The position numbers and the translations under genes were made by a program. Under the pieces are notes generated by a model. It saw only the letters and a list, made by a program, of their open reading frames with translations. It ran no database searches and was not told where the DNA came from. From the NCBI GenBank assembly GCA_021800275.1, contig JAJYZB010000002.1:70997-134996 (forward strand): a stretch of DNA of 64,000 nt. Reading direction: 5' to 3'. Source of the DNA: a bacterium (GTDB taxonomy: Bacteria; Vulcanimicrobiota; JABDET01). Every line of letters begins with the position of its first letter. The first letter of the stretch is position 1. Below, piece by piece: positions 7,757 through 30,752 of the stretch.

Positions 7757-9019
7757 ATGGACTGGCAGGATCGGGTCATAGATGGTATTATCCAAGCCCA
7801 GACCCTTGAACAGGCTTATCGAAATTTAGACAAAAAATTCCCTACCATTATTAAAGTAATACAGATCGCTCCCGAAGATCTTCCTGAAAATCCAGCTTCC
7901 ACGCAGCTTAAAAAAGTTTATTGGAAGCTGCCTGTTATTTCTGAACTTCTGTTCTCCAAACAGCGAAATCAAATTTGGAAAGGGAAAATTTCAACTGAAA
8001 ATTCAGCTCTTGCTGCAAAGCAGCTGTGGATCTTGCTGCATGCAGGATTTCCTGTGACTAAAGGATTAACTTTAATTGAACAAACTTCTGAGCCGCACCT
8101 TGGTTCAATCATAAAAGACATTCATCAAAACATCAAAAATGGGATTTCTTTTTCACAAGCAGTGGCAAAACATCCCAATCTTTTCCCACCTGTATGTCTG
8201 GCTATTATTCGCAGTGGAGAAACTTCGGGAAAATTAGAATACTGTTTCCAAGAGATTTCTGAACTTCTGGAAAAACAATTTGTTTTAAAGAAAAAGATTT
8301 GGGCGGCTCTGAGTTACCCTTTCACACTGACAGTGGTCAGTTCATTGATTTTATTCTTTTTTTTGGGGTATCTGCTGCCATCAGGAATGGCAGTTTATCA
8401 AAATTATCATTTTCAGCTGCCTCTTGCTACCAAATGCCTGCTAATCGTCATTTCTATCTTCCATTCCCAGCTTTTTAAAATCGCCATTTCAGCAGGAGCT
8501 GCTGTTTTTATTTTCCTGTATTTTTTCTTGTTTGGAACCGACATTTTTAAGAAAAAAATAGATCTGTGGCTTTTAAAAATTCCCGGGGTCAAAGATCTGA
8601 CTCTAAAAATCTGCATTCATCGTTCTCTATTCACTCTGGCATTTTTGATTGAAAATGGAATCTCAATTACGGAATCCTGCAATCTGGCAGCCGATGTCTC
8701 CGGAAACGCAATTTTTAGTAATAAATTTAAAACTATTGGCGAGCACATGAAAAAAGGGGAAGGAGTTCATGAATCATTTCGTTCCACTGACTTATTTACA
8801 AAACTAGCGCTGGATCTCATTGGAACAGGCGAATCTTCCGGAAAACTTCCTGAACTCTTAAAAAAAGCTTCTCAAATTTATGCACAGGAAGTGGATACTA
8901 AATTAGACACCCTGGTCAAACTCCTTGAACCCTGTTTTCTAGTAGGACTGTCTGGAATCGTTTTATTGATCGCTATTTCAGCTTTTATGCCAATGCTGAC
9001 CTTATCGCAGCATCTATGA
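7757..9019 (+). CDS. Type II secretion / type IV pilus inner-membrane platform protein (GspF/PilC family)
   Basis: 420 aa, two GspF-like repeats ('SGETSGKLEYCFQEISELLE', 'GTGESSGKLPELLKKASQIY') and TM segments. Confidence 0.8.
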   Translation: MDWQDRVIDGIIQAQTLEQAYRNLDKKFPTIIKVIQIAPEDLPENPASTQLKKVYWKLPVISELLFSKQRNQIWKGKISTENSALAAKQLWILLHAGFPVTKGLTLIEQTSEPHLGSIIKDIHQNIKNGISFSQAVAKHPNLFPPVCLAIIRSGETSGKLEYCFQEISELLEKQFVLKKKIWAALSYPFTLTVVSSLILFFFLGYLLPSGMAVYQNYHFQLPLATKCLLIVISIFHSQLFKIAISAGAAVFIFLYFFLFGTDIFKKKIDLWLLKIPGVKDLTLKICIHRSLFTLAFLIENGISITESCNLAADVSGNAIFSNKFKTIGEHMKKGEGVHESFRSTDLFTKLALDLIGTGESSGKLPELLKKASQIYAQEVDTKLDTLVKLLEPCFLVGLSGIVLLIAISAFMPMLTLSQHL

Positions 9020-9072
9020 AAGGACAAAGGCGATATGCAGATACTCATTCTCAACAAAACAGAGGAATACCG

Positions 9073-9528
9073 ATGAAAAAAAAAGGATTTTCTCTTTTAG
9101 AAGTAATGACTGCTCTCCTGGTCATCACGATTGGAATTCTTGGCGTAGCTTCTGTGTATATCTGGACATTGACAGGAGCAGAACATGGAACCCAGGTAGG
9201 AGCTGCTCTCCAAACAGCACAAGCGTTAATTGGACTAATCAAATCAGAGAACCAGGTTCCTTTTGGAAGCCCCTCCCTTCAAGTTGATGACTCATATCAA
9301 GACAATTCAGGCTTGTTTGATGCCTCTGGAGTTCAAAGACCCTTAAATTATAAACCTTTTGCCAGCAATTTTCCCGCCCATTCACCTTTTACAAGAAATA
9401 TCCATATTTCTCTTTTAGGAGAGGAATCATATCAACAAAATATTGCTGTTATTCAGGTTAAAGTTTTTTGGAAAGAAAAAGGAGCGGAAAAAGATGTTTC
9501 TTTTGTCGCCTATCAAAGGCAGCCGTAA
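9073..9528 (+). CDS. Prepilin-type N-terminal cleavage/methylation-domain protein (minor pseudopilin, GspH/PilV-like)
   Basis: ATG at 9073 after AGAGGA; N-terminus 'MKKKGFSLLEVMTALLVITIGILG' is a class III signal-peptide motif. Confidence 0.75.
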   Translation: MKKKGFSLLEVMTALLVITIGILGVASVYIWTLTGAEHGTQVGAALQTAQALIGLIKSENQVPFGSPSLQVDDSYQDNSGLFDASGVQRPLNYKPFASNFPAHSPFTRNIHISLLGEESYQQNIAVIQVKVFWKEKGAEKDVSFVAYQRQP

Positions 9529-10201
9529 GAACAAGTCCTCTGTCAGGCATGCCAATGCTATCCTGCACAGGTCCGGGTTTACCCTTTTCGAACTTTTGAC
9601 TGCTGCTGTGATTTCTGCTTTTATGACAGGAATTGTTCTTTTAATTTACACTGCCTTAAGAAATGCTTACTGGCAGGGAACAAACGTGATAGGAGCTCAG
9701 GAAGGTGCAAAAATCGCGATGATGCAGATTAAAGAAGTTCTAGGAAATGCCTGTCCTCCCAGCCCTATTCAAGATGCTCTTGTATCCCCTTCCATTGGAG
9801 GAAACAGTTCAGAAGTGGAATTTTGGGAACCCTGCGGCGGGCTCAGTCACCCTTTGAATCCAAACAGCCCTCTTTATACCCAATGCAGTCGAGAACTTCA
9901 GAATGCCGGCGTCAAACTGAAAGGGGGAGGATTGTTTTTTAATCCTCAAAACCCTTTCTATACAGAGATGGTTTTATCGCTCTTAAAAAATCAAGTTGTC
10001 TTATACAACGTGCAGGAAAATTTAACGCTTTACCAGCCTGAACAAACTGCGAACTTTATTACTAATGTCAATTTTGACAGACTTGAAGAAAACGCATTAG
10101 AAGTGACCATTACAAAACAAGAGGTGAGCAAAAATGCAGCAGGACAGAATAAAATTATTACCTCTCAGGCAGAGCAAATCATCTTCTTTCCACAAAAGTA
10201 A
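9494..10201 (+). CDS. Prepilin-type pseudopilin (GspJ/PilW-like), unusually long leader
   Basis: 'GFTLFELLTAAVISAFMTGIVLL' prepilin motif; ATG at 9494 with GGAG 10 nt upstream; start uncertain (ORF track opens at 9443). Confidence 0.6.
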   Translation: MFLLSPIKGSRKNKSSVRHANAILHRSGFTLFELLTAAVISAFMTGIVLLIYTALRNAYWQGTNVIGAQEGAKIAMMQIKEVLGNACPPSPIQDALVSPSIGGNSSEVEFWEPCGGLSHPLNPNSPLYTQCSRELQNAGVKLKGGGLFFNPQNPFYTEMVLSLLKNQVVLYNVQENLTLYQPEQTANFITNVNFDRLEENALEVTITKQEVSKNAAGQNKIITSQAEQIIFFPQK

Positions 10202-17545: not shown

Positions 17546-17619
17546 GATGCTTCTAAATTTCCTTATCTAATGCTTTTTTCCTGGAAAGCACCTTCATGGA
17601 ATCGGTATGACTGCGTATT

Positions 17620-18270
17620 CTAATTTTCTAAAATTAAAATTCCTTCTCGAATTGCATATTTGATCAGTTCTGTTCGATTGTGCAGATTCAATTTTTCCAT
17701 GATATGATATCTGTGGGTCTGGACAGTTTTTACAGAAACAAACAATTGATCCGCAATCTCCTGATTTGATTTTCCATCCGCTAAAAGCTTTAAAACTTCT
17801 AATTCACGAGGGCTTAACGTTCGCTGCATAGAAGCTAATGTTTCCCCTGATGCGCACCCTTTTAAAAGAGTTCGTGTTAATGAAGGAGAAAAGTAAAGAT
17901 CCCCCTCATAAGCTGTAAAAATAGCTGAAATCAGCTCCTCTCGATTCGTTCCTTTTAAAATATATCCTGAACTCCCTGCTTGAACAGCTGAAAAAAAATA
18001 GTATTCTGACTCATATTGAGTCAGAATTAAAATCTTAATCTCTGGATAAAGTTTTTTAATGGTTTGAGTGGCTTTTAATCCATTCAAAATAGGCATCCCA
18101 ATATCCATTAAAATAACATCTGGCTTCAATCTTCCCGCCAGCTCCACTGCTTCTTCTCCATGGGAAGCTTTTCCAATGACTGAAATTTCAGGTTCCCGTG
18201 ACAGCAGACTTTCAAGCCCTTCCCTTAAAATCGTATGATCATCAGCTATCAGCACTTTAATCATGGACAA
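17620..18270 (-). CDS. Two-component response regulator, NarL/LuxR family
   Basis: REC domain ('VLIADDH...DVILMDIGMP') plus LuxR HTH ('LSPRELEVLKLLADGKSNQEIADQLFVSVKTVQTH'). Confidence 0.85.
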   Translation of the reverse strand: MSMIKVLIADDHTILREGLESLLSREPEISVIGKASHGEEAVELAGRLKPDVILMDIGMPILNGLKATQTIKKLYPEIKILILTQYESEYYFFSAVQAGSSGYILKGTNREELISAIFTAYEGDLYFSPSLTRTLLKGCASGETLASMQRTLSPRELEVLKLLADGKSNQEIADQLFVSVKTVQTHRYHIMEKLNLHNRTELIKYAIREGILILEN

Positions 18271-19395
18271 TCACTTCCTTTTTTGAAAGTTGCTCTGCTG
18301 CTCTGATGAAGAAAGCCCTGAATCTCCTGCAGGGAAAACAGCAGAAGGAAGAAAAACCTTTATTGAAGCGCCTCTGTTTATGGAAGAGTGCACTTCAAAG
18401 ATTCCTGAGAGTAAAGAAGCCCTTTCTGCGATTCCTAAAAGTCCCATACCCTGACTTGTTTTTCGAGCTGTTTCGACATCAAATCCAATGCCATTATCTT
18501 CAACTTTTAACATCACTCCATCGGGCTGAAAACAGAGTCGTACTGAAACTTTTGTCGCTTTAGCGTGCTTCATAATATTATTCGCAATCTCCTGAGAAAT
18601 CCGATAAACTGCAACTTCTGCAGCATCAGACAAAAGAATCTCCTTTCCTTCTGTGGCAAAATCTGTGTGGATTCCATTTTTTCCTAATTCTTCTCGAAAA
18701 AGTGACAAGAGTGCCTGTTTCAGCCCCATGTCTTCCAGCAGCATAGGACGTAGATTAAAAACCAGGTGCCTCAGTTCTTTTAAATCTTGATCAATCACTT
18801 GTTTCACCTGTGCCAAAGTCATTTTACACGAATCCAAGACTGAAGAATCAAGAGGAGCAGAAATGAGCAGTTCCACTTCTTCAATCCGCATTCTGAGGGT
18901 GGTCAGCCCCTGCATGGTTTCATCATGAAGATCACGAGCAATCCGCCGGCGTTCTTCTTCCTGCGCAAAAATCAATCTCTCAGCTAACAGATGAGATCTC
19001 TGTCTCTCTAAATTGAGAACATCCAGCATTTGATTTAAAGATCGAACACACAAATTGACTAAAGGTCCTGATGCAGGATGAGAAGCAGCGCGAAAATTTA
19101 AATCACCTTTTGCCACCTGATCCATGGCTTGAGATAAAGAACGGAGTGGAGCAAGAACCATTTTAACAAACCAGGAGCTTAACCAAAGGGTTCCTGCAGC
19201 AGATAAAACAATCAACAAAATCCCCTGACTATGGGTTAAAGGAAGACCTCTCATTCCAATGAATACTAAAAAACACCAGAACAAAACAATAAAAAAATTG
19301 GCCCAGAAAATTTTCTTGGATGTGTCCAGTCTTTTAAACCACTGCAGAAATTCTGTCGAATCATCCAAAGAAGAAATCTTTTTAGAATCTGTCAT
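18271..19395 (-). CDS. Sensor histidine kinase (HisKA_3/NarX-type) with N-terminal TM segments
   Basis: 'ERRRIARDLHDETMQGLTTL' H-box, 'EDNGIGFD' and 'GMGLLGIAERA' HATPase motifs; directly abuts the response regulator gene. Confidence 0.8.
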   Translation of the reverse strand: MTDSKKISSLDDSTEFLQWFKRLDTSKKIFWANFFIVLFWCFLVFIGMRGLPLTHSQGILLIVLSAAGTLWLSSWFVKMVLAPLRSLSQAMDQVAKGDLNFRAASHPASGPLVNLCVRSLNQMLDVLNLERQRSHLLAERLIFAQEEERRRIARDLHDETMQGLTTLRMRIEEVELLISAPLDSSVLDSCKMTLAQVKQVIDQDLKELRHLVFNLRPMLLEDMGLKQALLSLFREELGKNGIHTDFATEGKEILLSDAAEVAVYRISQEIANNIMKHAKATKVSVRLCFQPDGVMLKVEDNGIGFDVETARKTSQGMGLLGIAERASLLSGIFEVHSSINRGASIKVFLPSAVFPAGDSGLSSSEQQSNFQKRK

Positions 19396-19591
19396 AACCT
19401 AACCTCTTGCATCATAGATCCAATAATCCTCTATGCTTTTTTTATCGTATCAGAAGTTTCCTGGTTTTTCTATCAGTCAGATACCTGATTTGTTATACTG
19501 GTCTTCTGGCCTCTTTTCTGCAGCATAAAAAATCAGGTGTTTTACTGATACTCTGCATTCATTTTTTATGCTATGATAGAATTTGTTCTTG

Positions 19592-20263
19592 ATGATTATG
19601 GACTTAAGCGTTCGAGAGACCTCTTCTCTATTAAATATTTCTGAAAATAAAATTTACCGCTGGATTCAAAACGGTTCCATTCCCGCACACAAGCTGCATG
19701 AACAGTATTACTTAAACCGTGTATATCTCCTGGAATGGGCTGCTGCACATCATTATTCTGTGTCAAACCCATCTTTTAACATTAATCCACTGCAGCAGAA
19801 GGCTCCTCTTTCCATGGCTTTAAAAAAAGGAGGAATTTTTTATAATCTTTCTGGCGTCTCTAAAAAAGAAATTTTCCAAGCAGCAGCACATCTGCCTGGA
19901 ATCCCCAGCTGCATCAATCGCAAGCTTTTAAATCAAATTTTACAAAGGGACAGCATGACTCCACTCCTTTCTTTTACTAAAGAGGGAATCTTTATTCCTC
20001 ATCCTCGATATCCATTTGTATTTTCGATTCCTGATCCAGTCCTGCTGCTGTGTTCTCTCAAGTCACCTGTTATTTTTACCCTGAACTGTCCACCTGCTCA
20101 AGCTTTTTTTCTTCTTTTTTCCCCCTCTGTTCTCTTCCACATTCAAATCACAACTCTCTTAACAGTTTTCCTATCCGATGCTGTTCTGAAGGATCTCATT
20201 CTTCTGAGCGCCCCTGGAGAAGCTATTCTAGATCGCATCAAAACTCTAGAAGCGCAAATTTGA
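19592..20263 (+). CDS. Helix-turn-helix (excisionase/MerR-like) protein fused to a PTS EIIA(Ntr)-like domain
   Basis: 'LNISENKIYRWIQNGSIPAHKL' HTH; C-terminal 'GIFIPHPRYP' resembles the EIIA-2 His region; stop TGA overlaps the ATG of the next gene (TGATG at 20261-20265); start ambiguous (TTG 19583, ATG 19592 or 19598). Confidence 0.5.
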   Translation: MIMDLSVRETSSLLNISENKIYRWIQNGSIPAHKLHEQYYLNRVYLLEWAAAHHYSVSNPSFNINPLQQKAPLSMALKKGGIFYNLSGVSKKEIFQAAAHLPGIPSCINRKLLNQILQRDSMTPLLSFTKEGIFIPHPRYPFVFSIPDPVLLLCSLKSPVIFTLNCPPAQAFFLLFSPSVLFHIQITTLLTVFLSDAVLKDLILLSAPGEAILDRIKTLEAQI

Positions 20264-22257
20264 TGCAGGTACTTATTTTAATTTCGCTGCTGATCCTTGG
20301 CACAGTCCCTCTGCTGATCCTGTTTTTCGCTGAAAACGAAAAGCTAATTCTTGCTGTTGGAACAATTGGAAATGGAGCTGCCTGCTGCATCGGTTTAACT
20401 GCAGCTCTTGGAGCTCTTATAACGGGAGAAACCTGCTCTTTAAAAGCAGTATGGTCACTTCCCTTGGGAAAAGTTGCCATTGGACTTGACCCTCTTTCCT
20501 CCTTTTTCCTGGTCTGTATTTTCCTGGTATCCGGGCTTTCAGTCCTGTATGGAAATGGATATTTTTCTTATGAGATAGGAAAAAAAAAGTTAAAGTCCCC
20601 TCTTATTTTTTCCAGCCTGTTAACAGCTTCTATGGTAGGAGTCGTCATTTCGCGAAATGGAATTTTATTCCTTATGTCATGGGAGATCATGTCTCTTTCC
20701 TCATTTTTCCTGGTCACCTTTGAAAATGAGCGCAGAGAGGTTCGCAGAGCAGGGATCTTATATCTCATGGCATCCCAGGCAGGGGCTCTTCTTCTTTTTG
20801 TCTTATTCGCTCTTTTAAACCGAAATTCAGGCAGCTTTAATTTTAATTCTTTTCACATTTCTTATGCGAAAATGCCGCGGACTGCTGATCTCTGTTTTTT
20901 ATTAGCGCTGCTTGGATTTGGGACAAAAGCAGGTTTCTGGCCTATTCATATTTGGCTGCCTGAAGCCCATCCAGCTGCTCCAAGCCCTGTTTCTGCTGTC
21001 ATGTCAGGGGTGATGATTAAAATGGGAATTTACGGAATTCTACGCACCCTTCTTTTTTTAGGAACTCCGCCGCTCTGGTGGGGAGGAGTGGTGCTTGGAA
21101 TAGGAGTAGTTTCAGGAATATTAGGAGTCCTGCATGCTTTAACAGAGCATGATCTAAAACGTCTTCTGGCCTATCACAGTGTTGAAAATATTGGAATTAT
21201 TACAATTGGGATTGGACTCGGTCTTTTAGGCAAGGCTTTAAATAACCCTGTCGTCACTTTTTTAGGATATGCTGGAGCCCTGCTGCACGTGCTGAATCAT
21301 GGAATTTTTAAAGGGCTGCTGTTCCACAGCGCTGGAAGTGTGATTCATGCAGCTGGAACAAGGAATATGGAAGAGCTTGGAGGATTGTACCGCTTTATGC
21401 CAGTAACAGGAAGCGCTTTTTTAGTTGGTTCTATCGCCATCTGCGGACTCCCCCCTTTCAATGGATTTATCAGTGAATGGCTGCTCTATATGGGAGGATT
21501 CATCGGTTCTTCTCATTTTTTTTCGACAGCAGGGGAGCTGCTCTGTCTAACTGCAGTACCAGCTTTAGCCCTGATTGGCGGGCTGGCAGTTACCTGTTTT
21601 GTAAAAGCTTTTGGGATCACTTTTCTCGGAAATCCCAGAGTCAATATCCCTGTTAAGATCCATGAATCCAATCACTCCATGCTGATCCCCATGATTCTAG
21701 GCTCTTTTCTGTGTGTTCTGATCGGCTGCTGGCCCCTTGGAATTCTCAATATCATCACTCCTGCTGCAGCAGTTTTAGGAGGGGGAGCTAGTGGCACAGC
21801 ATCTGTGCTGAAAACTCTTGCTAGAGTCCCTTACTTTGCAGCCCTGCTCTTTATTCTAATCCTTTTATTTTCCCTGCTGCGGTGGAAACTGCTTCAAAAT
21901 CGCGATGTCAGAACAGCTTCTACCTGGAGCTGTGGTTATACCACCTATCATACAAGAATGCAGTACACGGCTTCCTCTTTTGCTGAACCAATCCTCACCC
22001 CTTTTGCATCCTTAATCCATTCTCAGATACGGCATGGAAAAAAAGTGGATGGGTATTTTCCCGCTGAAGCCCGATATGAAAAACATTTAGGGGATATTGC
22101 TCATCAAAAATGGTTTCTCCCGTCTATTCGAAAAGCAGTCGGCTTTCTTTCGCAGCTTCGCATCCTGCAGCATGGGAAAGTCCAACTGTACCTTCTCTAT
22201 ATTGGTGGAGCTTTTGTCATGCTTTTAATATGGCTCTCCATCTGGGGAGGTCATTGA
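20263..22257 (+). CDS. Proton-pumping antiporter-like membrane subunit (HyfB / NuoL / MrpA family)
   Basis: 'WPIHIWLPEAHPAAPSPVSAVMSG' signature, many TM helices; ATG at 20263 overlaps the upstream stop. Confidence 0.8.
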   Translation: MQVLILISLLILGTVPLLILFFAENEKLILAVGTIGNGAACCIGLTAALGALITGETCSLKAVWSLPLGKVAIGLDPLSSFFLVCIFLVSGLSVLYGNGYFSYEIGKKKLKSPLIFSSLLTASMVGVVISRNGILFLMSWEIMSLSSFFLVTFENERREVRRAGILYLMASQAGALLLFVLFALLNRNSGSFNFNSFHISYAKMPRTADLCFLLALLGFGTKAGFWPIHIWLPEAHPAAPSPVSAVMSGVMIKMGIYGILRTLLFLGTPPLWWGGVVLGIGVVSGILGVLHALTEHDLKRLLAYHSVENIGIITIGIGLGLLGKALNNPVVTFLGYAGALLHVLNHGIFKGLLFHSAGSVIHAAGTRNMEELGGLYRFMPVTGSAFLVGSIAICGLPPFNGFISEWLLYMGGFIGSSHFFSTAGELLCLTAVPALALIGGLAVTCFVKAFGITFLGNPRVNIPVKIHESNHSMLIPMILGSFLCVLIGCWPLGILNIITPAAAVLGGGASGTASVLKTLARVPYFAALLFILILLFSLLRWKLLQNRDVRTASTWSCGYTTYHTRMQYTASSFAEPILTPFASLIHSQIRHGKKVDGYFPAEARYEKHLGDIAHQKWFLPSIRKAVGFLSQLRILQHGKVQLYLLYIGGAFVMLLIWLSIWGGH

Positions 22258-23183
22258 TGCTGGTTCTTGACATTTTTATTCACCTGATCCTCCTAATTTT
22301 ATTCCCTCCTTTTTTAATTGGATTTATCAATAAAGTAAAAGCCTGGACAGCAGGAAAACAAGGTCCTTCTTTATTTCAAGTCTATTATGACATAGAAAAG
22401 CTTTTAAAAAAAGGGGCTGTATACAGCAGCACAGCCACCTGGATCTTTAAAGCAGGACCTATCCTGACTTCTGCCAGTCTTGTCTGCGCAGGATTAATCC
22501 TTCCCATGATGAGAAATCACTCTACTTTTGGATTCACAGGAGATCTCATTTTTTTTGTCTATCTCTTTGCTCTTGGACATTTTTTTCTTTTAATTTCAGC
22601 CCTTGATGTGGGATCCAGTTTTGAAGGAATGGGAGCCAGCAGAGGAGCTGCTTTTGGAACTTTCGCAGAACTGGCTCTTTTTTCAGCCTTGGCGATTTTC
22701 TGCATCCCTGCTGGAAGCCCTACTTTTAAATCTGTTTTCACAGCTTTACCCTGGAAAACATGGGGTTTTGCTCACCCCGCATATTTAGCAGGAGCCCTCG
22801 TTCTATTGGCTGTGCTGCTGACAGAAAATTCGCGGCTTCCCATTGATGATCCCAATACCCATCTTGAACTCACCATGATCCATGAAGTCATGGTTCTGGA
22901 TCACGGAGGTCCTGATTTTGCTTTTATCCTTTACAGCAGCTCTCTGAAACTACTTCTGCAGGCAGACCTTTTGATTCACTTCCTGCTTCCTTTCCCTTCT
23001 CATCTCACAGAGGAAGGAGTTCTTCTTCTCCTCAGCGGTATTTTGGGGATAGGAATTCTGATTGGGATTTTAGAGTCTGTTACTGCGCGGCTCAGACTGC
23101 AGCGAATCCCTCAATTTTTAATCGGCGCTTTTATCCTGACAGTTTTAGGGTTAATGATCTCTTTTTATCGAGGGGCGCCGTGA
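22257..23183 (+). CDS. HyfC / HycD / NuoH-like membrane subunit
   Basis: N-terminal 'FLIGFINKVKAWTAGKQGPSLFQVYYDIEKLLKK' (NuoH-like); TGATG overlap with the upstream gene; GGGGAGG RBS. Confidence 0.75.
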   Translation: MLVLDIFIHLILLILFPPFLIGFINKVKAWTAGKQGPSLFQVYYDIEKLLKKGAVYSSTATWIFKAGPILTSASLVCAGLILPMMRNHSTFGFTGDLIFFVYLFALGHFFLLISALDVGSSFEGMGASRGAAFGTFAELALFSALAIFCIPAGSPTFKSVFTALPWKTWGFAHPAYLAGALVLLAVLLTENSRLPIDDPNTHLELTMIHEVMVLDHGGPDFAFILYSSSLKLLLQADLLIHFLLPFPSHLTEEGVLLLLSGILGIGILIGILESVTARLRLQRIPQFLIGAFILTVLGLMISFYRGAP

Positions 23184-23833
23184 TCCCTTACGTTAATTTT
23201 ATCCTGACTGCTGCTATTGCTCTAAATCTTTATATTGTCTCTTCAAGCAGACTGAGGAGCTGTGTTCAGGCAGCTGCTTTACAAGGGAGTGTTTTAGCTT
23301 TTCTTCCTATTCTGCTCTGGGGAACCCAGGCTTCTAAACTAGAAATCATCAATCTCCTTTTAATCGGGATTGGAACCCTGGGTGTGAAAGCCCTCCTGAT
23401 TCCTTTCCTTATGTTTCGTTCTATTCAAGAAGCCAATGTGCGCCGAGAAGTAGAACCTTTTATCAGCCTCCATCTTTCTCTTTCTGCTGCAGCAGTTCTG
23501 GTGATCATTTCCTTTTGGATTTCGAAGGTGACGGGTCTCCCCCATCCTCCCTCTGCCTATCTTGTTCCAGCGGCTTTTTCTGGGATTTTGATTGGGTTCT
23601 TAATCATGGTCAGCAGACAGAAAGCGATCACTCAGGTGATCGGCTACTTAATCTTTGAAAATGGAATCTTTATTTTTGGACAAATACTGTTTCAAAAGAT
23701 CCCCTTAGCTGTAGAATTAGGGGTGCTGCTGGATCTTCTTGTGGGGATTCTTGTCATGGGAATCGCCATTTATCATATCAGCCGAGAGTTTGACCATATT
23801 GATGTCAGTCGTTTGGATGGATTAAAAGGATGA
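23180..23833 (+). CDS. HyfE-like small membrane subunit
   Basis: 217 aa polytopic membrane protein; GTG start overlapping the upstream stop (GTGA); position in operon matches hyfE. Confidence 0.6.
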   Translation: MIPYVNFILTAAIALNLYIVSSSRLRSCVQAAALQGSVLAFLPILLWGTQASKLEIINLLLIGIGTLGVKALLIPFLMFRSIQEANVRREVEPFISLHLSLSAAAVLVIISFWISKVTGLPHPPSAYLVPAAFSGILIGFLIMVSRQKAITQVIGYLIFENGIFIFGQILFQKIPLAVELGVLLDLLVGILVMGIAIYHISREFDHIDVSRLDGLKG

Positions 23834-25296
23834 ACCACAGCTCCCTTCTCATCTGGATTTTCCTTCTTTTTCCTGCTGCAGCTGCAGTGGGATGTCTTAT
23901 CCTCAGAAAAGCAAGCTGGATATTTCGTTTTATTATGGTTGGGGCCGCAGTGGATGCAGGGCTTGGTTTTATCCTTATTCAATCACTTTTTCAAAAAGGC
24001 GCCCTGCGCGCAGCAGGTTCATGGCTTCGAGTTGATACTCTTTCAGCTTATTATATTCTCATCATGATTCTCGTATTTTTAATGGCTTCAATTTATGCTG
24101 CCCGATATTTCAATGAGGAGATTCAAAAAGGATCCTTAAGTGACAAAACAGCTGCTCGATTTGGATCCCTCTGGTTTGGAACTTTAAGTGTTATGACCCT
24201 GGTCCTTCTTTCTAACAATCTCGGATTAATGTGGGTTGGAATTGAAGCCACCACGTTAGCCACGACGTTTCTTATCAGTCTGCATCCTTCTCCATTATCT
24301 TTAGAAGCCGCCTGGAAATATGTGCTGATCTGTTCTGTTGGGATTGCTCTTGCCTTCCTTGGAACTCTTTTTGTGGGAGCAGCAGACAGCAGCAGTCTAA
24401 TATGGACCAAACTGGCAAGCCATGCTTCAATCTTAAATCCTCAGTTAATGAAAATGGCTTTTATTTTCCTTCTGATAGGATATGGCACAAAAGTAGGGCT
24501 GGCTCCTCTTCACACCTGGCTGCCGGATGCCCACAGCCAGGCCCCTGCGCCAGTCTCAGCAGTTTTTTCCGGATTCATGGTCAATGAAGCCATGTACTGC
24601 ATTATGCGTTATCTTCCAATTGTTAATGGAGCAGTTGGGAATTCCCATTTTTCAAGGGATCTTCTTTTATTTTTTGGCATCTTTTCAATGGCTGTCGCAG
24701 CAGTCTTTATTCTATTTCAACATGATATTAAAAGACTGCTGGCTTACAGTACAGTGGAACATCTAGGAATTACTGCAATTGGCTTAGGACTTGGAGGACT
24801 CGGGGTTTTTGCAGCGCTTTTTCATACGTTAAACCACTCCATCTGCAAAACAACTGGTTTTTTGTCTGCAGGAAAATTAGGCCAAAAATACGGCACTCAT
24901 GATTTAAGAAAAATGCCAGGAACTCTTCAGAAAGAACAGGTCTGGGGATTGGGTCTATTCTTGAGCCTTATTATCTTAGTCGGATCTGCCCCTTTTGCTG
25001 TGTTCATGAGTGAACTCCTGATCATCAAAGCAGCTGTGGATCATCACCACTTTCTGCTTTTAACATTTTTTCTAACAGCTCTGGGAATTGTTTTTATAGG
25101 AGTTCTTTCTCACGCAGTTTCAGCAGTTTGGGGAGAACCCCCAGGTGATCATGTTCTTCCTGAACCCAATCACCTGGGAGATATGCTGCTGGTTGGAGCC
25201 CCACTTCTTTTACTTTTAATATTAGGAATCTGGATGCCTCATCCACTTCGAGAGCTTTTAGAAAAATCAACTTTTATTTTAACAGGAAAACAATGA
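23830..25296 (+). CDS. HyfF / NuoN / NuoM-like antiporter-type membrane subunit
   Basis: 'LAPLHTWLPDAHSQAPAPVSAVFSG' signature; ATGA overlap with the upstream gene. Confidence 0.8.
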   Translation: MNHSSLLIWIFLLFPAAAAVGCLILRKASWIFRFIMVGAAVDAGLGFILIQSLFQKGALRAAGSWLRVDTLSAYYILIMILVFLMASIYAARYFNEEIQKGSLSDKTAARFGSLWFGTLSVMTLVLLSNNLGLMWVGIEATTLATTFLISLHPSPLSLEAAWKYVLICSVGIALAFLGTLFVGAADSSSLIWTKLASHASILNPQLMKMAFIFLLIGYGTKVGLAPLHTWLPDAHSQAPAPVSAVFSGFMVNEAMYCIMRYLPIVNGAVGNSHFSRDLLLFFGIFSMAVAAVFILFQHDIKRLLAYSTVEHLGITAIGLGLGGLGVFAALFHTLNHSICKTTGFLSAGKLGQKYGTHDLRKMPGTLQKEQVWGLGLFLSLIILVGSAPFAVFMSELLIIKAAVDHHHFLLLTFFLTALGIVFIGVLSHAVSAVWGEPPGDHVLPEPNHLGDMLLVGAPLLLLLILGIWMPHPLRELLEKSTFILTGKQ

Positions 25297-26798
25297 ACGT
25301 AAACTCTTCTTCACCCTCTGTGTTCTGGATCCGAAATGGAGACTCCATCCCATTATCCCGGGTTCCTTTCTACACTCCTGAAGATTTCCGCAGAATCTGC
25401 CTTGAACAGGTTTATTCAGGGGGAAGGCTTGCTCTGCTTTCATCAGTTCCCGCTCTCTACGGCAGAAAAGGAGGGAAGACCCTCCTGGCTCTTGCAGCTG
25501 ATGATGAGAATGGAAAAATTGGAGTTCTGTGCGCTGATTTAGAAGAGAAAAACTCTTATTTAAGCCTTTCTTCAGAAATTCCGCAGGCTCAGGGATTTGA
25601 GAGAGAAATCTTTGAAGAACAAGGGATTCTTCCAAAAAATCACCCCTGGCTTAAGCCCTTAAGAAAACAAGAAACTCCTTATCCGTTTTTTAAAGTAAAA
25701 GGGGAGGGAATACATGAAGTGGCTGTTGGTCCTGTTCATGCAGGAATTATTGAACCAGGGCATTTTCGATTTCAATGTTCAGGAGAAACTGTTCACCATT
25801 TAGAAATCCAGTTAGGGTATCAGCACAGAGGAGCTGAAGAGCTTTTTCTTCGATCCTCACCTGAACGAAGATTGGTCATCTCAGAATCTTTTGCTGGTGA
25901 TACGGTTATTGGACATGCTCTGGCTTACTGCATGGAAATTGAAGCCCTTTCTAAGTCAGAACCCCCACTTTATGCCCATATTCTTCGAGGGGCAGCCCTT
26001 GAATTAGAACGAATTTCGAATCATATAGGGGATCTAGGGGCTCTGTGCGGTGATATTGGGTATCTTCCTGGAGCTGCCTGGTTCGGGAGAATCAGAGGGG
26101 AATTTTTAAACTGGCTAATGGAACTATCCGGGAACCGATTTGGAAGAGGACTTCTGAAGCCAGGAGGGGTGAGGTTTAATTTGAGCGCTCAACAAACAGA
26201 AAATTTCTTAATCCGCTTAGATAAAGCAGAAAGAGATCTAAAAGAAACAGCTGAACTGACCTTCAATCATCCTGCAGTTTGTTCAAGATTTGAAGAAACA
26301 GGGATCGTTTCGCGCGCTGCTGCAGAGGCTTTAGGAATGGTAGGACCAGCAGCCCGCTCCAGCGGCTGTGAAAGAGATGTCAGAAGGGATCACCCCTTTG
26401 GGATTTTTCGATTTTATCATATTCCAACAGCTGCAGCAGATACAGGAGACGTCATGGCTCGCGCTGTGCTGAGGTGGCTCGAAACAGAACGTTCTATTCA
26501 ATTTATCCGGGAGCAGCTGACAGGACTCCTTGAACAATCGCTGGAAGTTGAACTGCAGACAGAAATTCAAAAAATGTCTCCAGAACACCTTGCTGTTTCA
26601 ATGGTAGAAAGCTGGAGAGGAGAAATTCTGCATTTGGCTGTCACCACTTCAAAAGGGGAAATAACAGGATATAAAATTGTGGATCCTTCTTTCCACAATT
26701 GGTTTGGACTGGCTCTTGCTTTACGCGGAGGCCAGATCTCTGATTTTCCTTTGTGCAATAAAAGTTTTAACCTTTCGTACTCTGGACATGATTTATAA
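25293..26798 (+). CDS. Fused NuoC-NuoD-like 'large subunit' (HycE/HyfG-like) lacking both NiFe-binding cysteine motifs
   Basis: NuoC-like 'FEREIFEEQGILPKNHPWLKPLR'; NuoD-like 'GPVHAGIIEPGHFRF...LGYQHRGAEE'; L1 position reads 'ERRLVISESFAGDTVIGH' (no CxxC); C-terminus reads 'DPSFHNW' instead of DPCxxC. Confidence 0.75.
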   Translation: MNVNSSSPSVFWIRNGDSIPLSRVPFYTPEDFRRICLEQVYSGGRLALLSSVPALYGRKGGKTLLALAADDENGKIGVLCADLEEKNSYLSLSSEIPQAQGFEREIFEEQGILPKNHPWLKPLRKQETPYPFFKVKGEGIHEVAVGPVHAGIIEPGHFRFQCSGETVHHLEIQLGYQHRGAEELFLRSSPERRLVISESFAGDTVIGHALAYCMEIEALSKSEPPLYAHILRGAALELERISNHIGDLGALCGDIGYLPGAAWFGRIRGEFLNWLMELSGNRFGRGLLKPGGVRFNLSAQQTENFLIRLDKAERDLKETAELTFNHPAVCSRFEETGIVSRAAAEALGMVGPAARSSGCERDVRRDHPFGIFRFYHIPTAAADTGDVMARAVLRWLETERSIQFIREQLTGLLEQSLEVELQTEIQKMSPEHLAVSMVESWRGEILHLAVTTSKGEITGYKIVDPSFHNWFGLALALRGGQISDFPLCNKSFNLSYSGHDL

Positions 26799-26821
26799 AT
26801 ATTGATCATGGAGAAAAACCA

Positions 26822-27607
26822 ATGTTTAAACTTTTAAAAGCAAGACTGCACCAGGGATATCAAACTTCCCGATTTCCTGAAGCAGAGATAAAACTCCCTG
26901 AGCGATTTAGGGGAAAACCTGTCCTTGATCCTGCCCCTTGTCAAGAGAACTGCTCAGCCTGTGCAGCAGTTTGTCCTACACAGGCGATAACTCTTGATCC
27001 TTTTCAAATCGATCTCGGAGCCTGTTTGTTCTGCCCTCTCTGCCAGGAAGTATGTCCCGAGAAAAAAATTCATTATACCCCTGATTATCATTTAGCCGTC
27101 AATTCCAAAAAGGACTTAAAAATTTCAGAAAAAGAAGCAAAATTAGCAGAGGCGCTGAAGACTGAAATGCTGAAAGTGTTGGGACGATCCTTAAAACTCC
27201 GTCAGGTTTCTGCAGGGGGATGCAGTGGATGTGAAGCAGAGCTGACAGCCTTAGGAAATGTCGTGTTTGATTTGAGCCGCTTCGGCATACAATTTACAGC
27301 ATCCCCTCGTCATGCTGATGGAATTGCTGTAACAGGGCCTGTTTCAAAAAATATGGAAGCAGCGCTGCGAGAAACCTATGCAGCAGTCCCCTCTCCTAAA
27401 ATAGTGATTGCTGTAGGAGCCTGCGCCATCAGCGGCGGCCCTTTTGCAGGAGCCAAAGCAGCTCTCCTAGGAATTCCTGAAGATATCCCTGTGGATCTGT
27501 ATATCCCAGGCTGCCCTCCACATCCCTTAACCATTCTGGATGGCCTGCTGCGATTATTGAACCGAATCAAAGGATCTCCTTCCCCATTCCAAAAATCAGG
27601 TGTTTAA
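26822..27607 (+). CDS. Fusion of a 2x[4Fe-4S] ferredoxin domain (HyfH/NuoI-like) with a NuoB/HycG-like small subunit
   Basis: 'CQENCSACAAVCP' and 'CLFCPLCQEVCP' clusters; then 'GGCSGCEAE', 'GACAISGGPF', 'PGCPPHP' small-subunit cysteines; GGAGA RBS. Confidence 0.75.
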   Translation: MFKLLKARLHQGYQTSRFPEAEIKLPERFRGKPVLDPAPCQENCSACAAVCPTQAITLDPFQIDLGACLFCPLCQEVCPEKKIHYTPDYHLAVNSKKDLKISEKEAKLAEALKTEMLKVLGRSLKLRQVSAGGCSGCEAELTALGNVVFDLSRFGIQFTASPRHADGIAVTGPVSKNMEAALRETYAAVPSPKIVIAVGACAISGGPFAGAKAALLGIPEDIPVDLYIPGCPPHPLTILDGLLRLLNRIKGSPSPFQKSGV

Positions 27608-27708
27608 CCGATACCCTTTTTTTCCTTTTTCTGATAGTCTAAGGAAAGAGACTGTATTAAATCTTCCGTTTTCGAGGAAAACAAGGGAGACAGCAGTAGA
27701 GGAAAACA

Positions 27709-28131
27709 GTGAAAATGCAACCAAAGAAAAAAGTAAAAAAGGGTCCTCTTTTGTTAAAAGCCGTCAAAAAGAGACCAGGGCAAAAGTCAGATCCTGAGAG
27801 TTCTGCCTCAAATTTTACAAAGAACGATTTATTTGGGATAAAAGACTGCCTCGGAATCTCTGATAAAGAACTAGCTCAAATCCTTTTAATTGAGCCTGAA
27901 GTCTTAACAGAACCTGATTTTAAAAACATTCCTATTTCCAGAATCGCTGATCTGCAGAAGGTCGTCAGCAGGGCTGTCGAAATCTTTACTTTAAAAGGAA
28001 TGAGTGAGTGGTTTCATCAACCCCATCCTGAACTCGAGGATCAGTCCCCTCTGGAAGTTTTGAGAGCGCCAGAAGGGGATCAAAAAATTCTGCAGCTTCT
28101 TGCAGCAATTGAATGGGGGGTACCTGTATGA
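27709..28131 (+). CDS. Xre-like antitoxin with DUF2384 (MbcA/ParS-type) toxin-binding domain
   Basis: C-terminal 'WFHQPHPELEDQSPLEVLRAPEGDQKILQLLAAIEWGV' matches the DUF2384 signature; stop overlaps the downstream RES gene start. Confidence 0.65.
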   Translation: MKMQPKKKVKKGPLLLKAVKKRPGQKSDPESSASNFTKNDLFGIKDCLGISDKELAQILLIEPEVLTEPDFKNIPISRIADLQKVVSRAVEIFTLKGMSEWFHQPHPELEDQSPLEVLRAPEGDQKILQLLAAIEWGVPV

Positions 28132-28703
28132 ATATTTTAATGCAGGAAGGAACATTTTACCGAATTGTCATAGGCTGCCGCAGAAAAGAGATTCATAAGC
28201 CTGCCGAGAACTTAATTTTCGGAGGACGATTTACCCCCCCAGAACTTTCCAATACTCTTTATTTAAGCTCTTCTGTTCAAGGATGTCTGGAAGAAATTCG
28301 ATTTAGAATCGGAGGGGATCTAAGAAAAGTTAAACCTCTTGTTTTAGGAACTTTTCAGACGCGATTTTCAAAAATATTAGATTTAACAGATGAAGCTGTT
28401 GTTAAAGTTTTTTTAGGAGATAATCACAGTAAAATTTTTTCCTCAAACTCTGCAAATTACGAGACAACACACCGTCTTGCAGCAGCAGCTGTAAAACGCG
28501 GTTTTGAAGGAATTTTGTATCATTCTGCTGTTTCTCCAGAACATAAAAATCTGGCTGTTTTTTTAGACAATCTGGGTCCAAATTCGTTTATTAAGAAGAT
28601 TTCTATAGATAAAGTGAATATCGGGTGTCAGCCTTTGTCTGGCCGCAGCGCCTGCAGCAGATCTTCAGAATCGGTCTGGCAGAAGGTTTATCAGGTTATT
28701 TAA
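28128..28703 (+). CDS. RES-domain toxin (MbcT/ParT-like NAD+-targeting family)
   Basis: 'GGRFTPPELSNTLYLSSSVQGCLEEI' and 'GILYHSAVSP' carry the R, E and S positions; ATG at 28128 overlaps the antitoxin stop (ATGA). Confidence 0.7.
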   Translation: MNILMQEGTFYRIVIGCRRKEIHKPAENLIFGGRFTPPELSNTLYLSSSVQGCLEEIRFRIGGDLRKVKPLVLGTFQTRFSKILDLTDEAVVKVFLGDNHSKIFSSNSANYETTHRLAAAAVKRGFEGILYHSAVSPEHKNLAVFLDNLGPNSFIKKISIDKVNIGCQPLSGRSACSRSSESVWQKVYQVI

Positions 28704-28807
28704 AAAATAATATCCTATAAAAGATAAAAACTCAAAATCCTGTCAAAAATTTGCCAAAACTTTAAAACAGGAAATAGGCTCGCAAATCGTAATGGAGGGT
28801 AATAACT

Positions 28808-29488
28808 ATGCTGAAAGTAGGAGTGGTTTTAAGTGGATGTGGAGTCATGGATGGTTCAGAAATTCATGAAGCCGTTTTGACCCTGTATTTCCTTGACAAA
28901 CAAGGTGCAGAGGTGGTTTTTATGGCTCCTGACCTATCCTTTAAAGCGGTGGACCATTTATCAGGGAGAGAAACAGGGGAAATGCGGAATGTTCTCGTGG
29001 AATCCGCCAGGATTGCCCGCGGAAAAATTCGAGATATAAAAGAGGTGAAAGCTGCTGAATTAGATGCTTTGATCTTACCAGGAGGATTTGGAGCCGCTAA
29101 AAACCTCTGCGATTTTGCTTCTAAAGGAGCTGGTGCTGCCCCTCATCCAGAAGTTGCAAGACTGGTGAAAGAGATGCATCAGTTTAAAAAACCGATCGGA
29201 GCAGTCTGCATTTCTCCTGCTTTAATCGCCAGTATTTTTAAAGGCACATCCATAACACCCCTTCTAACCATTGGAACAGACTCCTCAACAGCAGAAGCTC
29301 TAGAAAAAATGAATGCCAGACATGAACCCCATTCTGTTCATGAAATTTCAGTTGATCGAGAGAATAAAATTGTCAGCACTCCTGCTTATATGCTGGGACA
29401 GCGAATCTCAGAAGTTGGTTCAGGAATTGAAAAATTAGTCAGTGAAGTTTTGTCGCTGGCTCGAGAAAAAGCAGGAGCGGTCCGGTAA
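28808..29488 (+). CDS. elbB: DJ-1/PfpI-family glyoxalase ElbB
   Basis: 'KVGVVLSGCGVMDGSEIHEAVLTL' N-terminus and 'AVCISPALIA' nucleophile elbow. Confidence 0.8.
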   Translation: MLKVGVVLSGCGVMDGSEIHEAVLTLYFLDKQGAEVVFMAPDLSFKAVDHLSGRETGEMRNVLVESARIARGKIRDIKEVKAAELDALILPGGFGAAKNLCDFASKGAGAAPHPEVARLVKEMHQFKKPIGAVCISPALIASIFKGTSITPLLTIGTDSSTAEALEKMNARHEPHSVHEISVDRENKIVSTPAYMLGQRISEVGSGIEKLVSEVLSLAREKAGAVR

Positions 29489-29644
29489 GATAATTCAAAA
29501 AATCCACCTTTTCTGATTTTTCAGCGCCCTACTTTTCTCAATCAATTTCCAGAATAAATAGAAAGCAACATGGGAATTGAAATTTTAGATGCCTCAAAAC
29601 ATTTAGAACTTAACCGATCCGCTCCAAAGGTGAAACTGGAAAAT

Positions 29645-29995
29645 TTAAAATCGGCTTGAAGTTGTAATTTTTTTTATAATTTCAAACCTATTTTTGACAG
29701 GGGTATGCTGCGATAAAAAGGAGATGAAATCTGATGGCGATTCTGCATCAAAAACGGAAATAAACTTATGAGGATTATCGCAAACTCCCTTTCTGAACGC
29801 AAAAGCTGATACTTCACTTCTGCTTTCGTCGTTTTCTAATCTCTGACATAATCTCTTTTGCTGTGCCAGAACTGAGACGGCCTGCTTTAATATCTCCACT
29901 GGCTTTTCGTTCTCCTTCCTGCCAGGCTGGAGACCCGACAGGATCATTTCTAGAGCCATTGGTGGAATTTCTATCCACGGCAGAAATATGCCCAC
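29645..29995 (-). CDS. Hypothetical ORF of doubtful validity
   Basis: 116 aa ORF with no recognisable domain; an overlapping alternative frame also encodes a long open stretch. Confidence 0.2.
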   Translation of the reverse strand: MGIFLPWIEIPPMALEMILSGLQPGRKENEKPVEILKQAVSVLAQQKRLCQRLENDESRSEVSAFAFRKGVCDNPHKFISVFDAESPSDFISFLSQHTPVKNRFEIIKKITTSSRF

Positions 29996-30046
29996 CTTTT
30001 AGGTGCTTAACTTTGCCGCCAAAATCTCGTGGAACTGATAATATTT

Positions 30047-30445
30047 TTAAGTTTGCTCAAATCGCCAGAAGTCGCTCGGTTTAATCACAGGAATTCCATC
30101 AAAATTCTTAAGAGCCAGTAAATCGCTGTCGCCACTGATAAGACAGTCAGAGCCTCCATTCCGCCCTGCAGCTAGAATCCCATTATCATCCGGATCTCGG
30201 CAAATAGAAGGGATAGGTAATTTAACATCCACTAGGCAGGCATTTTCTCTAATAAATTCCAAAAACAGACCTACATTATCTTTTGAAAAGTGAAGTTTAT
30301 TCATTAATTTGTCTAAAATCTCATGCAGAATCTGCTGGGATGTCAAAAGAGAATGATTTAACAGGCAGTGGTCCAGAAGTTCGCTGCACGCGCCTGGAGA
30401 AACAAATGCAGCAATCCAGATATTAGTGTCAAAGAAAACTTTCAC
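30047..30445 (-). CDS. PIN-domain ribonuclease toxin (VapC-like)
   Basis: 'KVFFDTNIWIAAF', 'RDPDDNGILAAG', 'DCLISGDSDLL' PIN acidic motifs; GTG start overlapping the upstream reading frame. Confidence 0.75.
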   Translation of the reverse strand: MKVFFDTNIWIAAFVSPGACSELLDHCLLNHSLLTSQQILHEILDKLMNKLHFSKDNVGLFLEFIRENACLVDVKLPIPSICRDPDDNGILAAGRNGGSDCLISGDSDLLALKNFDGIPVIKPSDFWRFEQT

Positions 30446-30513
30446 GAAATAATACGAAAAACATCTTCTTCTGAAAAGATACCTTTACTTCTAGCCTCCA
30501 GCATCAGACGCTG

Positions 30514-30659
30514 CTAAATTTCTTTAAATTCACGACGGGCTAAATAAATGCGCACAGCTTCCCGAACAATGTCGCTGCGATTGACTTTTTCTTGTTTTGA
30601 CACTTGATCCAGCTTTTTTTGATCTCTTTAGGAAGAGAAATAGTAACCGAATCTCTCAT
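30514..30659 (-). pseudogene. Ribbon-helix-helix (CopG-like) antitoxin gene disrupted by a frameshift in an A7 homopolymer
   Basis: GGAGGA RBS then ATG at 30659; 'MRDSVTISLPKEIKK' continues as 'KLDQVSKQEKVNRSDIVREAVRIYLARREFKEI' only if one A is added to the run (plus-strand T7 at 30614-30620); the span is 146 nt, not a multiple of 3. Confidence 0.55.
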
Positions 30660-30752
30660 TCATGTCCTCCTGTATTAAATTGTAACACATCTCTGTGGTT
30701 CAGTCAATGGAAACTTCTCTATGAAGATAAGGGGTTTGCAAGAAGTACCTTT

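Follow-up and report, generated by a model that had tools for sequence, protein, structure and literature searches.

How can an open toxin gene come to stand beside an antitoxin gene that can no longer be read through? By the addiction logic of toxin-antitoxin (TA) modules, the toxin is expected to be lost before the antitoxin, and surveys bear this out. The opposite arrangement is seen in a 64,000-nucleotide stretch of a genome of the GTDB lineage Vulcanimicrobiota (JABDET01; positions 70,997 to 134,996 of contig JAJYZB010000002.1, assembly GCA_021800275.1), to which we refer as the window: on its minus strand, a gene for a ribbon-helix-helix (RHH, CopG-type) antitoxin (30442-30659) is broken, and the gene for a PIN-domain toxin that follows it (30047-30445) is uninterrupted. 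A preliminary description, made from the sequence alone, had offered three readings of this locus: a homopolymer sequencing error; phase-variable or slippage-dependent expression of the antitoxin; or an inactivated antitoxin beside a toxin that is tolerated or itself inactive. Two real lesions and the signals of translational coupling support the last of these, and we regard the locus as probably a recently inactivated RHH-antitoxin/PIN_3-toxin (VapBC-like) type II cassette, whose toxin would have been silenced by the loss of its translational coupling to the antitoxin.

Two lesions in the antitoxin gene

The antitoxin gene retains the strong start that had been noticed at the outset: the Shine-Dalgarno (SD) sequence AGGAGG (30666-30671, minus strand) lies six bases ahead of the ATG at 30659, and its calculated duplex energy with the anti-SD sequence is −10.3 kcal/mol, compared to a mean of −2.6 kcal/mol at random positions of the window. 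Upstream of it stands a σ70-type promoter (30679-30707, minus strand) that matches 10 of 12 positions in our scan, with the −35 box TTGACT, a spacer of 17 nt and an extended −10 element of the form TG-n-TACAAT. The promoter block is near-identical in an intact sister cassette (loci L006-L015), and the DNA further upstream is unrelated in MAFFT alignments. Our search of the promoter region for an operator found weak inverted repeats only, none of them convincing. Antitoxin and toxin genes are co-oriented, in this order, under the one promoter, as in the type II TA modules.

The first lesion lies close to the start of the gene. Read in the zero frame, the antitoxin gives MRDSVTISLPKEIKK; it turns to nonsense after a run of seven A residues at codons 14-16 (KKK; plus-strand T7, 30614-30620) and closes at a TAG (30540-30542, minus strand) 95 nt upstream of the PIN start, for a product of 39 aa. 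If the A7 run is read as A8, the frame goes on with KLDQVSKQEKVNRSDIVREAVRIYLARREFKEI, and the RHH domain continues in this frame as originally proposed. With one A added, the translation scores above the curated cut-offs of Pfam RHH_3 (E 7.5e-10; 39.1 bits, cut-off 21.6) and RHH_1 (E 2.3e-9; 37.3 bits, cut-off 20.5); only the repaired translation passes this CopG/RHH test (PF01402/PF12651), the match being otherwise spread over two frames. The RHH similarity of the upstream open reading frame (ORF), which the preliminary description had wished to see verified by profile searches, can also be detected without any repair: a hidden Markov model (HMM) built from 61 intact antitoxins of the family matches the unaltered window in two frames, at model positions 2-20 (E 8e-4) and 16-74 (E 8e-22), a two-frame match that exceeds chance, and it switches frame at the A7 run. 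Homologues carry K/R-K-K at the codons of this run, and the gene measures 218 nt, compared to the 219 nt expected of 72 codons and a stop. Lesion 1 thus appears to be a one-base deletion, from A8 to A7.

The second lesion lies in the shifted frame. The preliminary description had taken “...REFKEI” for the natural end of the antitoxin; this proved mistaken, as the frame is closed there by an in-frame TAG (30514-30516, minus strand, codon 49), beyond which it stays open for 23 further conserved codons (QRLMLEARSKGIFSEEDVFRIIS) to a TGA that overlaps the GTG of the PIN gene. The nearest homologue has CAG (Gln) at codon 49 and most others have Arg; the TAG costs the antitoxin its conserved C-terminal 24 residues. 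Searched against a collection of 5.8 billion protein clusters, the repaired antitoxin matched nine close homologues along its entire length, all of them of 72 aa except for one of 75 aa; the nearest (P0001, 72 aa) is 90% identical and the other eight are 53-60% identical, and the C-terminal residues E55, A56, G60, F62, E65, D66, F68, and S72 are invariant among the nine. From these homologues, the ancestral antitoxin had 72 codons and ended in GTGA, and lesion 2 is a C-to-T nonsense change, from CAG to TAG, independent of lesion 1. Any order assigned to the two lesions is conjectural. Reassignment or read-through of TAG is ruled out, since TAG is a normal stop in the window, where it closes 4 of the 41 long ORFs.

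With two disabling lesions relative to nine intact homologues, seen in independent assemblies (below), the antitoxin gene is a bacterial pseudogene. A type II TA module requires an intact antitoxin; this locus has none, and is the remnant of a module rather than a working member. The antitoxin should be marked as a pseudogene in annotation, and the PIN protein should be left out of counts of working TA toxins.

Sequencing error, slippage, and phase variation at the A7 run

A frameshift within a homopolymer, the classic place for sequencing and assembly errors, invites the suspicion that the real gene is intact. By exact look-up of the PIN protein and of a neighbouring 440-aa ligase, we found ten public assemblies in which the antitoxin sequence matches that of the window at every base, the A7 run and the TAG included: four from Logan (SRR22746145, SRR22746133, SRR22746123, and SRR13201254), three from ENA (ERZ27237019, ERZ27237044 with a contig of 327 kb, and ERZ27237364), one from JGI (3300039716), and two metagenome-assembled genomes (MAGs) from NCBI (GCA_027371935.1 and GCA_027421905.1). 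Several pipelines and no fewer than five separate read sets stand behind them, although some MAGs may share their reads with other assemblies. Over overlaps of up to 7.3 kb, they show 0-2 mismatches to the window and none inside the cassette; two assemblies have 1-2 SNPs outside it, which shows that both lesions are present in more than one genotype. Sampled populations that are so nearly clonal prove the accuracy of the sequence, not a long persistence of the broken state.

A sequencing error is effectively refuted by these assemblies: the same gene holds a second lesion, the TAG, that lies outside any homopolymer; the 5.8-billion-cluster collection returned no intact allele closer than P0001; and the other homopolymer-rich genes that we checked are in frame. 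The window has 94 homopolymer runs (A/T of at least 7, G/C of at least 6), and no frameshifted gene was found among the suspicious overlapping ORF pairs checked at such runs. The pair at 19583-22257 encodes unrelated Pfam domains and is two genes, one of them with an over-extended start; the pair at 9016-10201 shows no sign of splitting.

It is extremely improbable that the antitoxin is made by −1 ribosomal frameshifting, transcriptional slippage, or phase variation at the A7 run, as part of a regulated and functional module. The promoter and ribosome-binding site are intact and strong, and as the run is followed by G, the second Lys-tRNA would re-pair perfectly after a −1 slip, with the shifted frame reading KLDQ. 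A product rescued in this way, however, would still end at the TAG of codon 49, an ordinary stop in this window, and would lack the conserved C-terminal third. Moreover, with ATC AAA AAA AGC as the zero-frame codons, the heptamer at the run is C AAA AAA, which does not fit X XXY YYZ; no homologue has the frameshift, and the nearest reads AGG AAA AAA TTG, in which the run is A6 and is interrupted by GG. The run is A7 in 10 of 10 assemblies, with no polymorphism in its length, although these are consensus assemblies from which minority variants could escape. The A7 run therefore lacks the features of a programmed −1 frameshift or slippage site and, as far as consensus assemblies go, those of a phase-variable homopolymer. 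A pattern search of JGI metagenome contigs, which allowed A-runs of 5-11, gave 0 matches even for the known allele and is uninformative on A8 variants.

Slippage could also be imagined to yield a split antitoxin, in a module that is rewired rather than dead: a slippage-made RHH-only repressor of 48 aa, together with a toxin-binding peptide from the C-terminal part. An ORF of 20 codons (MLEARSKGIFSEEDVFRIIS) does start at ATG 30504, ten bases past the TAG, and its TGA overlaps the PIN GTG, so the tail peptide and the toxin would be coupled and made 1:1. At the amino-acid level, codons 50-72 differ from those of the sister cassette only by the replacement of Ile by Met from which this ATG arises. 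We nevertheless consider a split antitoxin very improbable: no SD precedes ATG 30504 (−0.6 kcal/mol); intact members of the family often have Met at this position or beside it; and the low ratio of nonsynonymous to synonymous divergence (dN/dS) of the antitoxin tail follows just as well from recent lesions.

Probable translational coupling and the state of the PIN toxin

Our sequence comparisons suggest a mechanism by which the loss of the antitoxin could be borne. The PIN gene starts with a GTG (30445-30443) that overlaps the TGA of the ancestral antitoxin (30444-30442) in a GTGA motif (30442-30445, minus strand), a junction of the termination-reinitiation type. This GTG has no SD, with an anti-SD energy of +0.3 kcal/mol, and the predicted mRNA fold around it (z-score −0.05) gives no evidence of a sequestering structure. 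The same arrangement is widespread among relatives: of 79 related loci among the PIN-alignment matches listed from species-representative genomes (GTDB), 59 have a 4-nt NTGA overlap between the stop of an RHH antitoxin of about 72 aa and the toxin start. At these 59 loci, the median anti-SD energy is −1.4 kcal/mol for toxin starts, 40 of which are GTG or TTG, and −6.3 kcal/mol for antitoxin starts, 57 of which are ATG (Wilcoxon p 1e-6 for the difference in energy). An SD-poor, overlapping toxin start is therefore a trait of the family as a whole.

An overlap of this kind has a known function elsewhere. In haloarchaeal NgVapBC1, a −4 nt GTGA overlap couples the translation of vapC to that of vapB through termination-reinitiation (PMC13488343), and a passage of the same report, citing Huber et al. 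2023, describes the downstream genes of −4 nt overlap pairs as unexpressed without coupling. NgVapBC1 and, as cited in that report, parD kis-kid of plasmid R1 share with the window the GTGA overlap of stop and start and a weak GTG as toxin start. In NgVapBC1, translation of the toxin needs completion of the antitoxin; for the family studied here, the 59 loci suggest the same. If so, only ribosomes that have read the antitoxin to its end and terminated there would gain access to the PIN GTG. In the window, ribosomes would halt short of the junction, by 95 nt in the zero frame and by 69 nt in the shifted frame, and either lesion would end the synthesis of antidote and toxin together; this joint loss would make decay that begins with the antitoxin survivable or neutral. 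As its SD-less GTG overlaps the antitoxin stop and both lesions stop ribosomes upstream of it, we infer that the PIN gene is translationally silent. Coupling would then be a fail-safe that renders nonsense and frameshift mutations of the antitoxin harmless, and this would bear on the erosion of chromosomal TA modules as well as on the annotation of “orphan toxins”.

That the lesions are recent follows from comparison with the sister cassette, in which an RHH antitoxin (P0001, 72 aa) stands ahead of a PIN_3 toxin (P0012, 140 aa) in many MAGs, including GCA_027421885.1. The two cassettes have the same promoter boxes, position of the ribosome-binding site, and GTGA junction, and their proteins are 90% (antitoxin) and 67% (PIN) identical. 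The sister, however, has no frameshift (AGG AAA AAA TTG) and has CAG at codon 49; its PIN protein is longer by 8 residues; and it occupies another genomic site, flanked by an AP-endonuclease-family gene and an HDOD gene. The sole stretch of the window homologous to it extends from the −35 box to the end of the PIN gene (30050-30710, minus strand; 75% nucleotide identity by blastn and MAFFT), with unrelated flanks. Because the homology is confined to 30710-30050 and the contexts are unrelated, the RHH-PIN unit is a mobile two-gene cassette. Relative to sister locus L006, Nei-Gojobori estimates are dS 1.48, dN 0.05, and dN/dS 0.034 for the antitoxin, and dS 1.41, dN 0.21, and dN/dS 0.146 for the PIN toxin. 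The antitoxin was thus under strong purifying selection for nearly all of the time since the cassettes diverged, and its lesions are therefore recent. Across 30 contigs of the sister lineage, the antitoxin protein does not vary, whereas its PIN partner occurs in 12 variants within one 90% cluster; the toxin of this sub-family evolves faster than its antitoxin, consistent with the values of 0.146 and 0.034. In our scan of GTDB species representatives with the PIN alignment, the best match was 50% identical, and neither the sister cassette nor the present lineage was among the 80 loci listed.

The PIN gene itself is intact, as first described: its 132-aa ORF is unbroken, and the protein scores above the cut-offs of PF13470 (44.7 bits, cut-off 27) and TIGR00305, “putative TA system toxin, PIN family” (58.6 bits, cut-off 29.15). 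In an alignment of 27 sequences of the family, it keeps all invariant columns (D6, N8, R83, D84, L91, G105, D106, L110, and F126) as well as the near-invariant T7, E42, D87, and D108. Its AlphaFold (AF2) model is confident through the last helix (mean pLDDT 94.8), and Foldseek aligns it to VapC structures with probability 1.00 and TM scores of 0.65-0.72, which points to a VapC-like fold; matches at a TM score of about 0.7 comprise those of R. felis (3zvk), Shigella (5ecw), and M. tuberculosis (5x3t and 4chg) and the PIN-like protein PcrIIC1 (8wmm_G). The best match is PcrIIC1 (E 1.5e-5, TM 0.71), an accessory protein of the CbCas9 complex, which marginally outscores the classical VapC toxins. 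A PDB sequence search with the PIN profile gave no match at E 0.01. When the differences between the two PIN proteins are polarised with 15-25 outgroups, 4-5 are derived in the window and 7-9 in the sister, and we see in these comparisons no sign that constraint on the window PIN has been relaxed. Two changes specific to the window fall at well-conserved positions: D41H, beside near-invariant E42; and A94G, where 92-100% of outgroups have Ala. In addition, a gap of 7 nt relative to L006 (window 30040-30052 vs. L006:4608-4641) makes the PIN TAA and removes eight basic C-terminal residues (HHRKRSSS); it is possibly a third, mild lesion of the cassette. Residual similarity to the sister cassette runs on beyond the TAA.

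Gene calls on identical DNA differ at the PIN start: NCBI and ENA list an 85-aa fragment from an internal ATG at 30304 (30047-30304), and JGI and Logan list the 132-aa ORF from GTG. One gene call also lists a 29-aa RHH fragment. The inconsistency in the annotated PIN start stems from the broken operon.

Several points weigh against a silenced toxin. The near-consensus promoter is intact and, with its repressor gone, should be de-repressed. The GTG or the internal ATG 30304 may allow initiation at a low level without an SD, and the 20-codon ORF from ATG 30504, which ends at the GTGA, could in principle restore some coupling. The PIN protein, which presumably was toxic in the ancestral cassette, might already have been inactive, given the loss of its eight C-terminal residues together with D41H and A94G. 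Finally, as the sampled genomes are near-clonal, the persistence of the toxin ORF says little about selection in either direction.

Two other accounts of the open toxin gene have to be weighed against silencing. It is doubtful, though the more credible of the two, that synthesis of the PIN protein continues and a similar antitoxin encoded elsewhere in the genome neutralises it in trans, or that the protein is kept as a solitary RNase (an orphan toxin). The PIN ORF and its catalytic-type residues are intact on a branch without acceleration; P0001, 90% identical to the broken antitoxin, occurs in related MAGs that belong to the same accession batch and ENA study series; orphan toxins are common in surveys (PMC10790755); and compensation by similar TA systems is among the explanations proposed by Belot et al. 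(PMC13617665). The intactness of the PIN gene is, however, equally explained by recent lesions, and the missing SD and broken coupling argue against much PIN synthesis. The 64-kb window has no second RHH or PIN copy and, as a weak further point, P0001 was found, among the matches listed, only in assemblies and MAGs other than the carriers of this locus. It is unlikely that the toxin was inactivated before the antitoxin with its ORF left open, in which case the usual order of decay would merely be hidden. D41H, A94G, and the gap that creates the TAA could mark such an event, and decay of the toxin first is by far the commoner course in the survey by Belot et al. (185 toxin-only and 186 double losses vs. 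8 antitoxin-only losses; PMC13617665). Yet His occupies the position of D41 in at least one intact member of the family (P0033); the C-terminal tail varies in length across the family and is absent in more distant members; all invariant and near-invariant columns are kept, in a model that is confident to the last helix; and the window branch has no excess of derived substitutions. Silencing of an intact toxin through lost coupling thus remains, in our view, the probable explanation.

Related systems and genomic neighbourhood

The survey just mentioned, of eroded TA copies in Photorhabdus (Belot et al. 2026, Mol Biol Evol, PMC13617665), counted 185 copies in which only the toxin is defective, 186 in which both genes are, and 8 in which the toxin is intact and the antitoxin defective, the last being 8 of 379, or about 2%; the reasons proposed there are polar effects, silent toxin mutations, and compensation by similar TA systems. 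The window shows the same pattern, likewise in a small variable spot beside other TA genes, in a different TA family. It is thus a real TA remnant of an ordinary kind, in the rarer order of decay, that has already been described; with two independent lesions seen in ten assemblies, it is a clean natural example of the rare antitoxin-first order. Compared to the Photorhabdus study, its SD-less GTG and GTGA junction, both family-wide, lend specific sequence support to the polar-effect explanation.

The cassette resembles VapBC modules with RHH antitoxins (M. tuberculosis VapBC26, 5x3t; K. pneumoniae, 7by2/7by3; Neisseria FitAB, 2bsq) in several respects: the antitoxin precedes the toxin, with a 4-nt overlap of stop and start; the antitoxin combines an RHH DNA-binding domain at its N-terminus with a conserved tail at its C-terminus; the PIN protein is of about 130 aa with its acidic residues retained; and the promoter directly precedes the genes. 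Antitoxin and toxin find their matches in the same PDB entries (RHH profile: 7by2, E 0.005, and 5x3t_A, E 0.02; PIN model: 5x3t_B, TM 0.71, 7by3_B, TM 0.63, and 3zvk, TM 0.70). It differs from them in that the window PIN belongs to the PIN_3/TIGR00305 branch and not to PF01850 (NCBIfam VapC equivalog E 0.097, below the cut-off), is only 13-17% identical to solved VapCs, and, with its antitoxin broken, forms no working TA pair. No experimentally characterised member of the PIN_3 sub-family was found by PDB profile search and PADLOC, and PADLOC gave no match for the antitoxin, the PIN protein, or their neighbours.

Elsewhere in the family, a Binatia MAG (L017:1-290) and an Acidobacteriota MAG (L056:5670-6000) keep the antitoxin C-terminus and the NTGA junction beside an unrecognisable RHH N-terminus, and the tblastn match to PIN spans residues 1-130 in both. 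Antitoxin damage beside an open toxin ORF thus recurs in this family.

The cassette lies at the edge of a typical variable hotspot. In a related MAG (L101, GCA_027421525.1, 6404-8349), the orthologues of a PaaK-like ligase and a MutL-like protein are separated by a single GmrSD-family gene, whereas in the window they are about 13 kb apart (17567-30752), with Mrp/NADH-dehydrogenase-like genes, an HTH-EIIA gene, a RES-Xre pair, a DJ-1 gene, and the TA remnant between them. The window has no tRNA genes and no Rfam family. The RES-Xre pair, two genes away from the cassette (27709-28703, plus strand), is a second type II module, in which a 140-aa Xre/MbcA/ParS-type antitoxin (PF09722) and a 196-aa RES toxin (PF08808) overlap by 19 nt; both ORFs are open.

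Downstream of the PIN gene, a 54-aa ORF starts at GTG 29978 (29674-29978, minus strand) with a good SD (−7.4 kcal/mol), and its TGA overlaps the GTG of a 47-aa ORF in another GTGA. Neither ORF has a Pfam, NCBIfam, or PADLOC match, and the pair may be another small two-gene unit or its remnant. A 51-aa protein of the representative library (P0176, E 3e-5) shares 59% identity with the 54-aa ORF over 39 residues; among 1.84 billion representatives, the downstream 80-codon frame matched P0176 and gave two further matches, to short stretches of large multi-stretch proteins. Among named homologues, those nearest to the neighbouring 440-aa ligase belong to Obscuribacterales and Bdellovibrionota MAGs and share about 50% identity with it.

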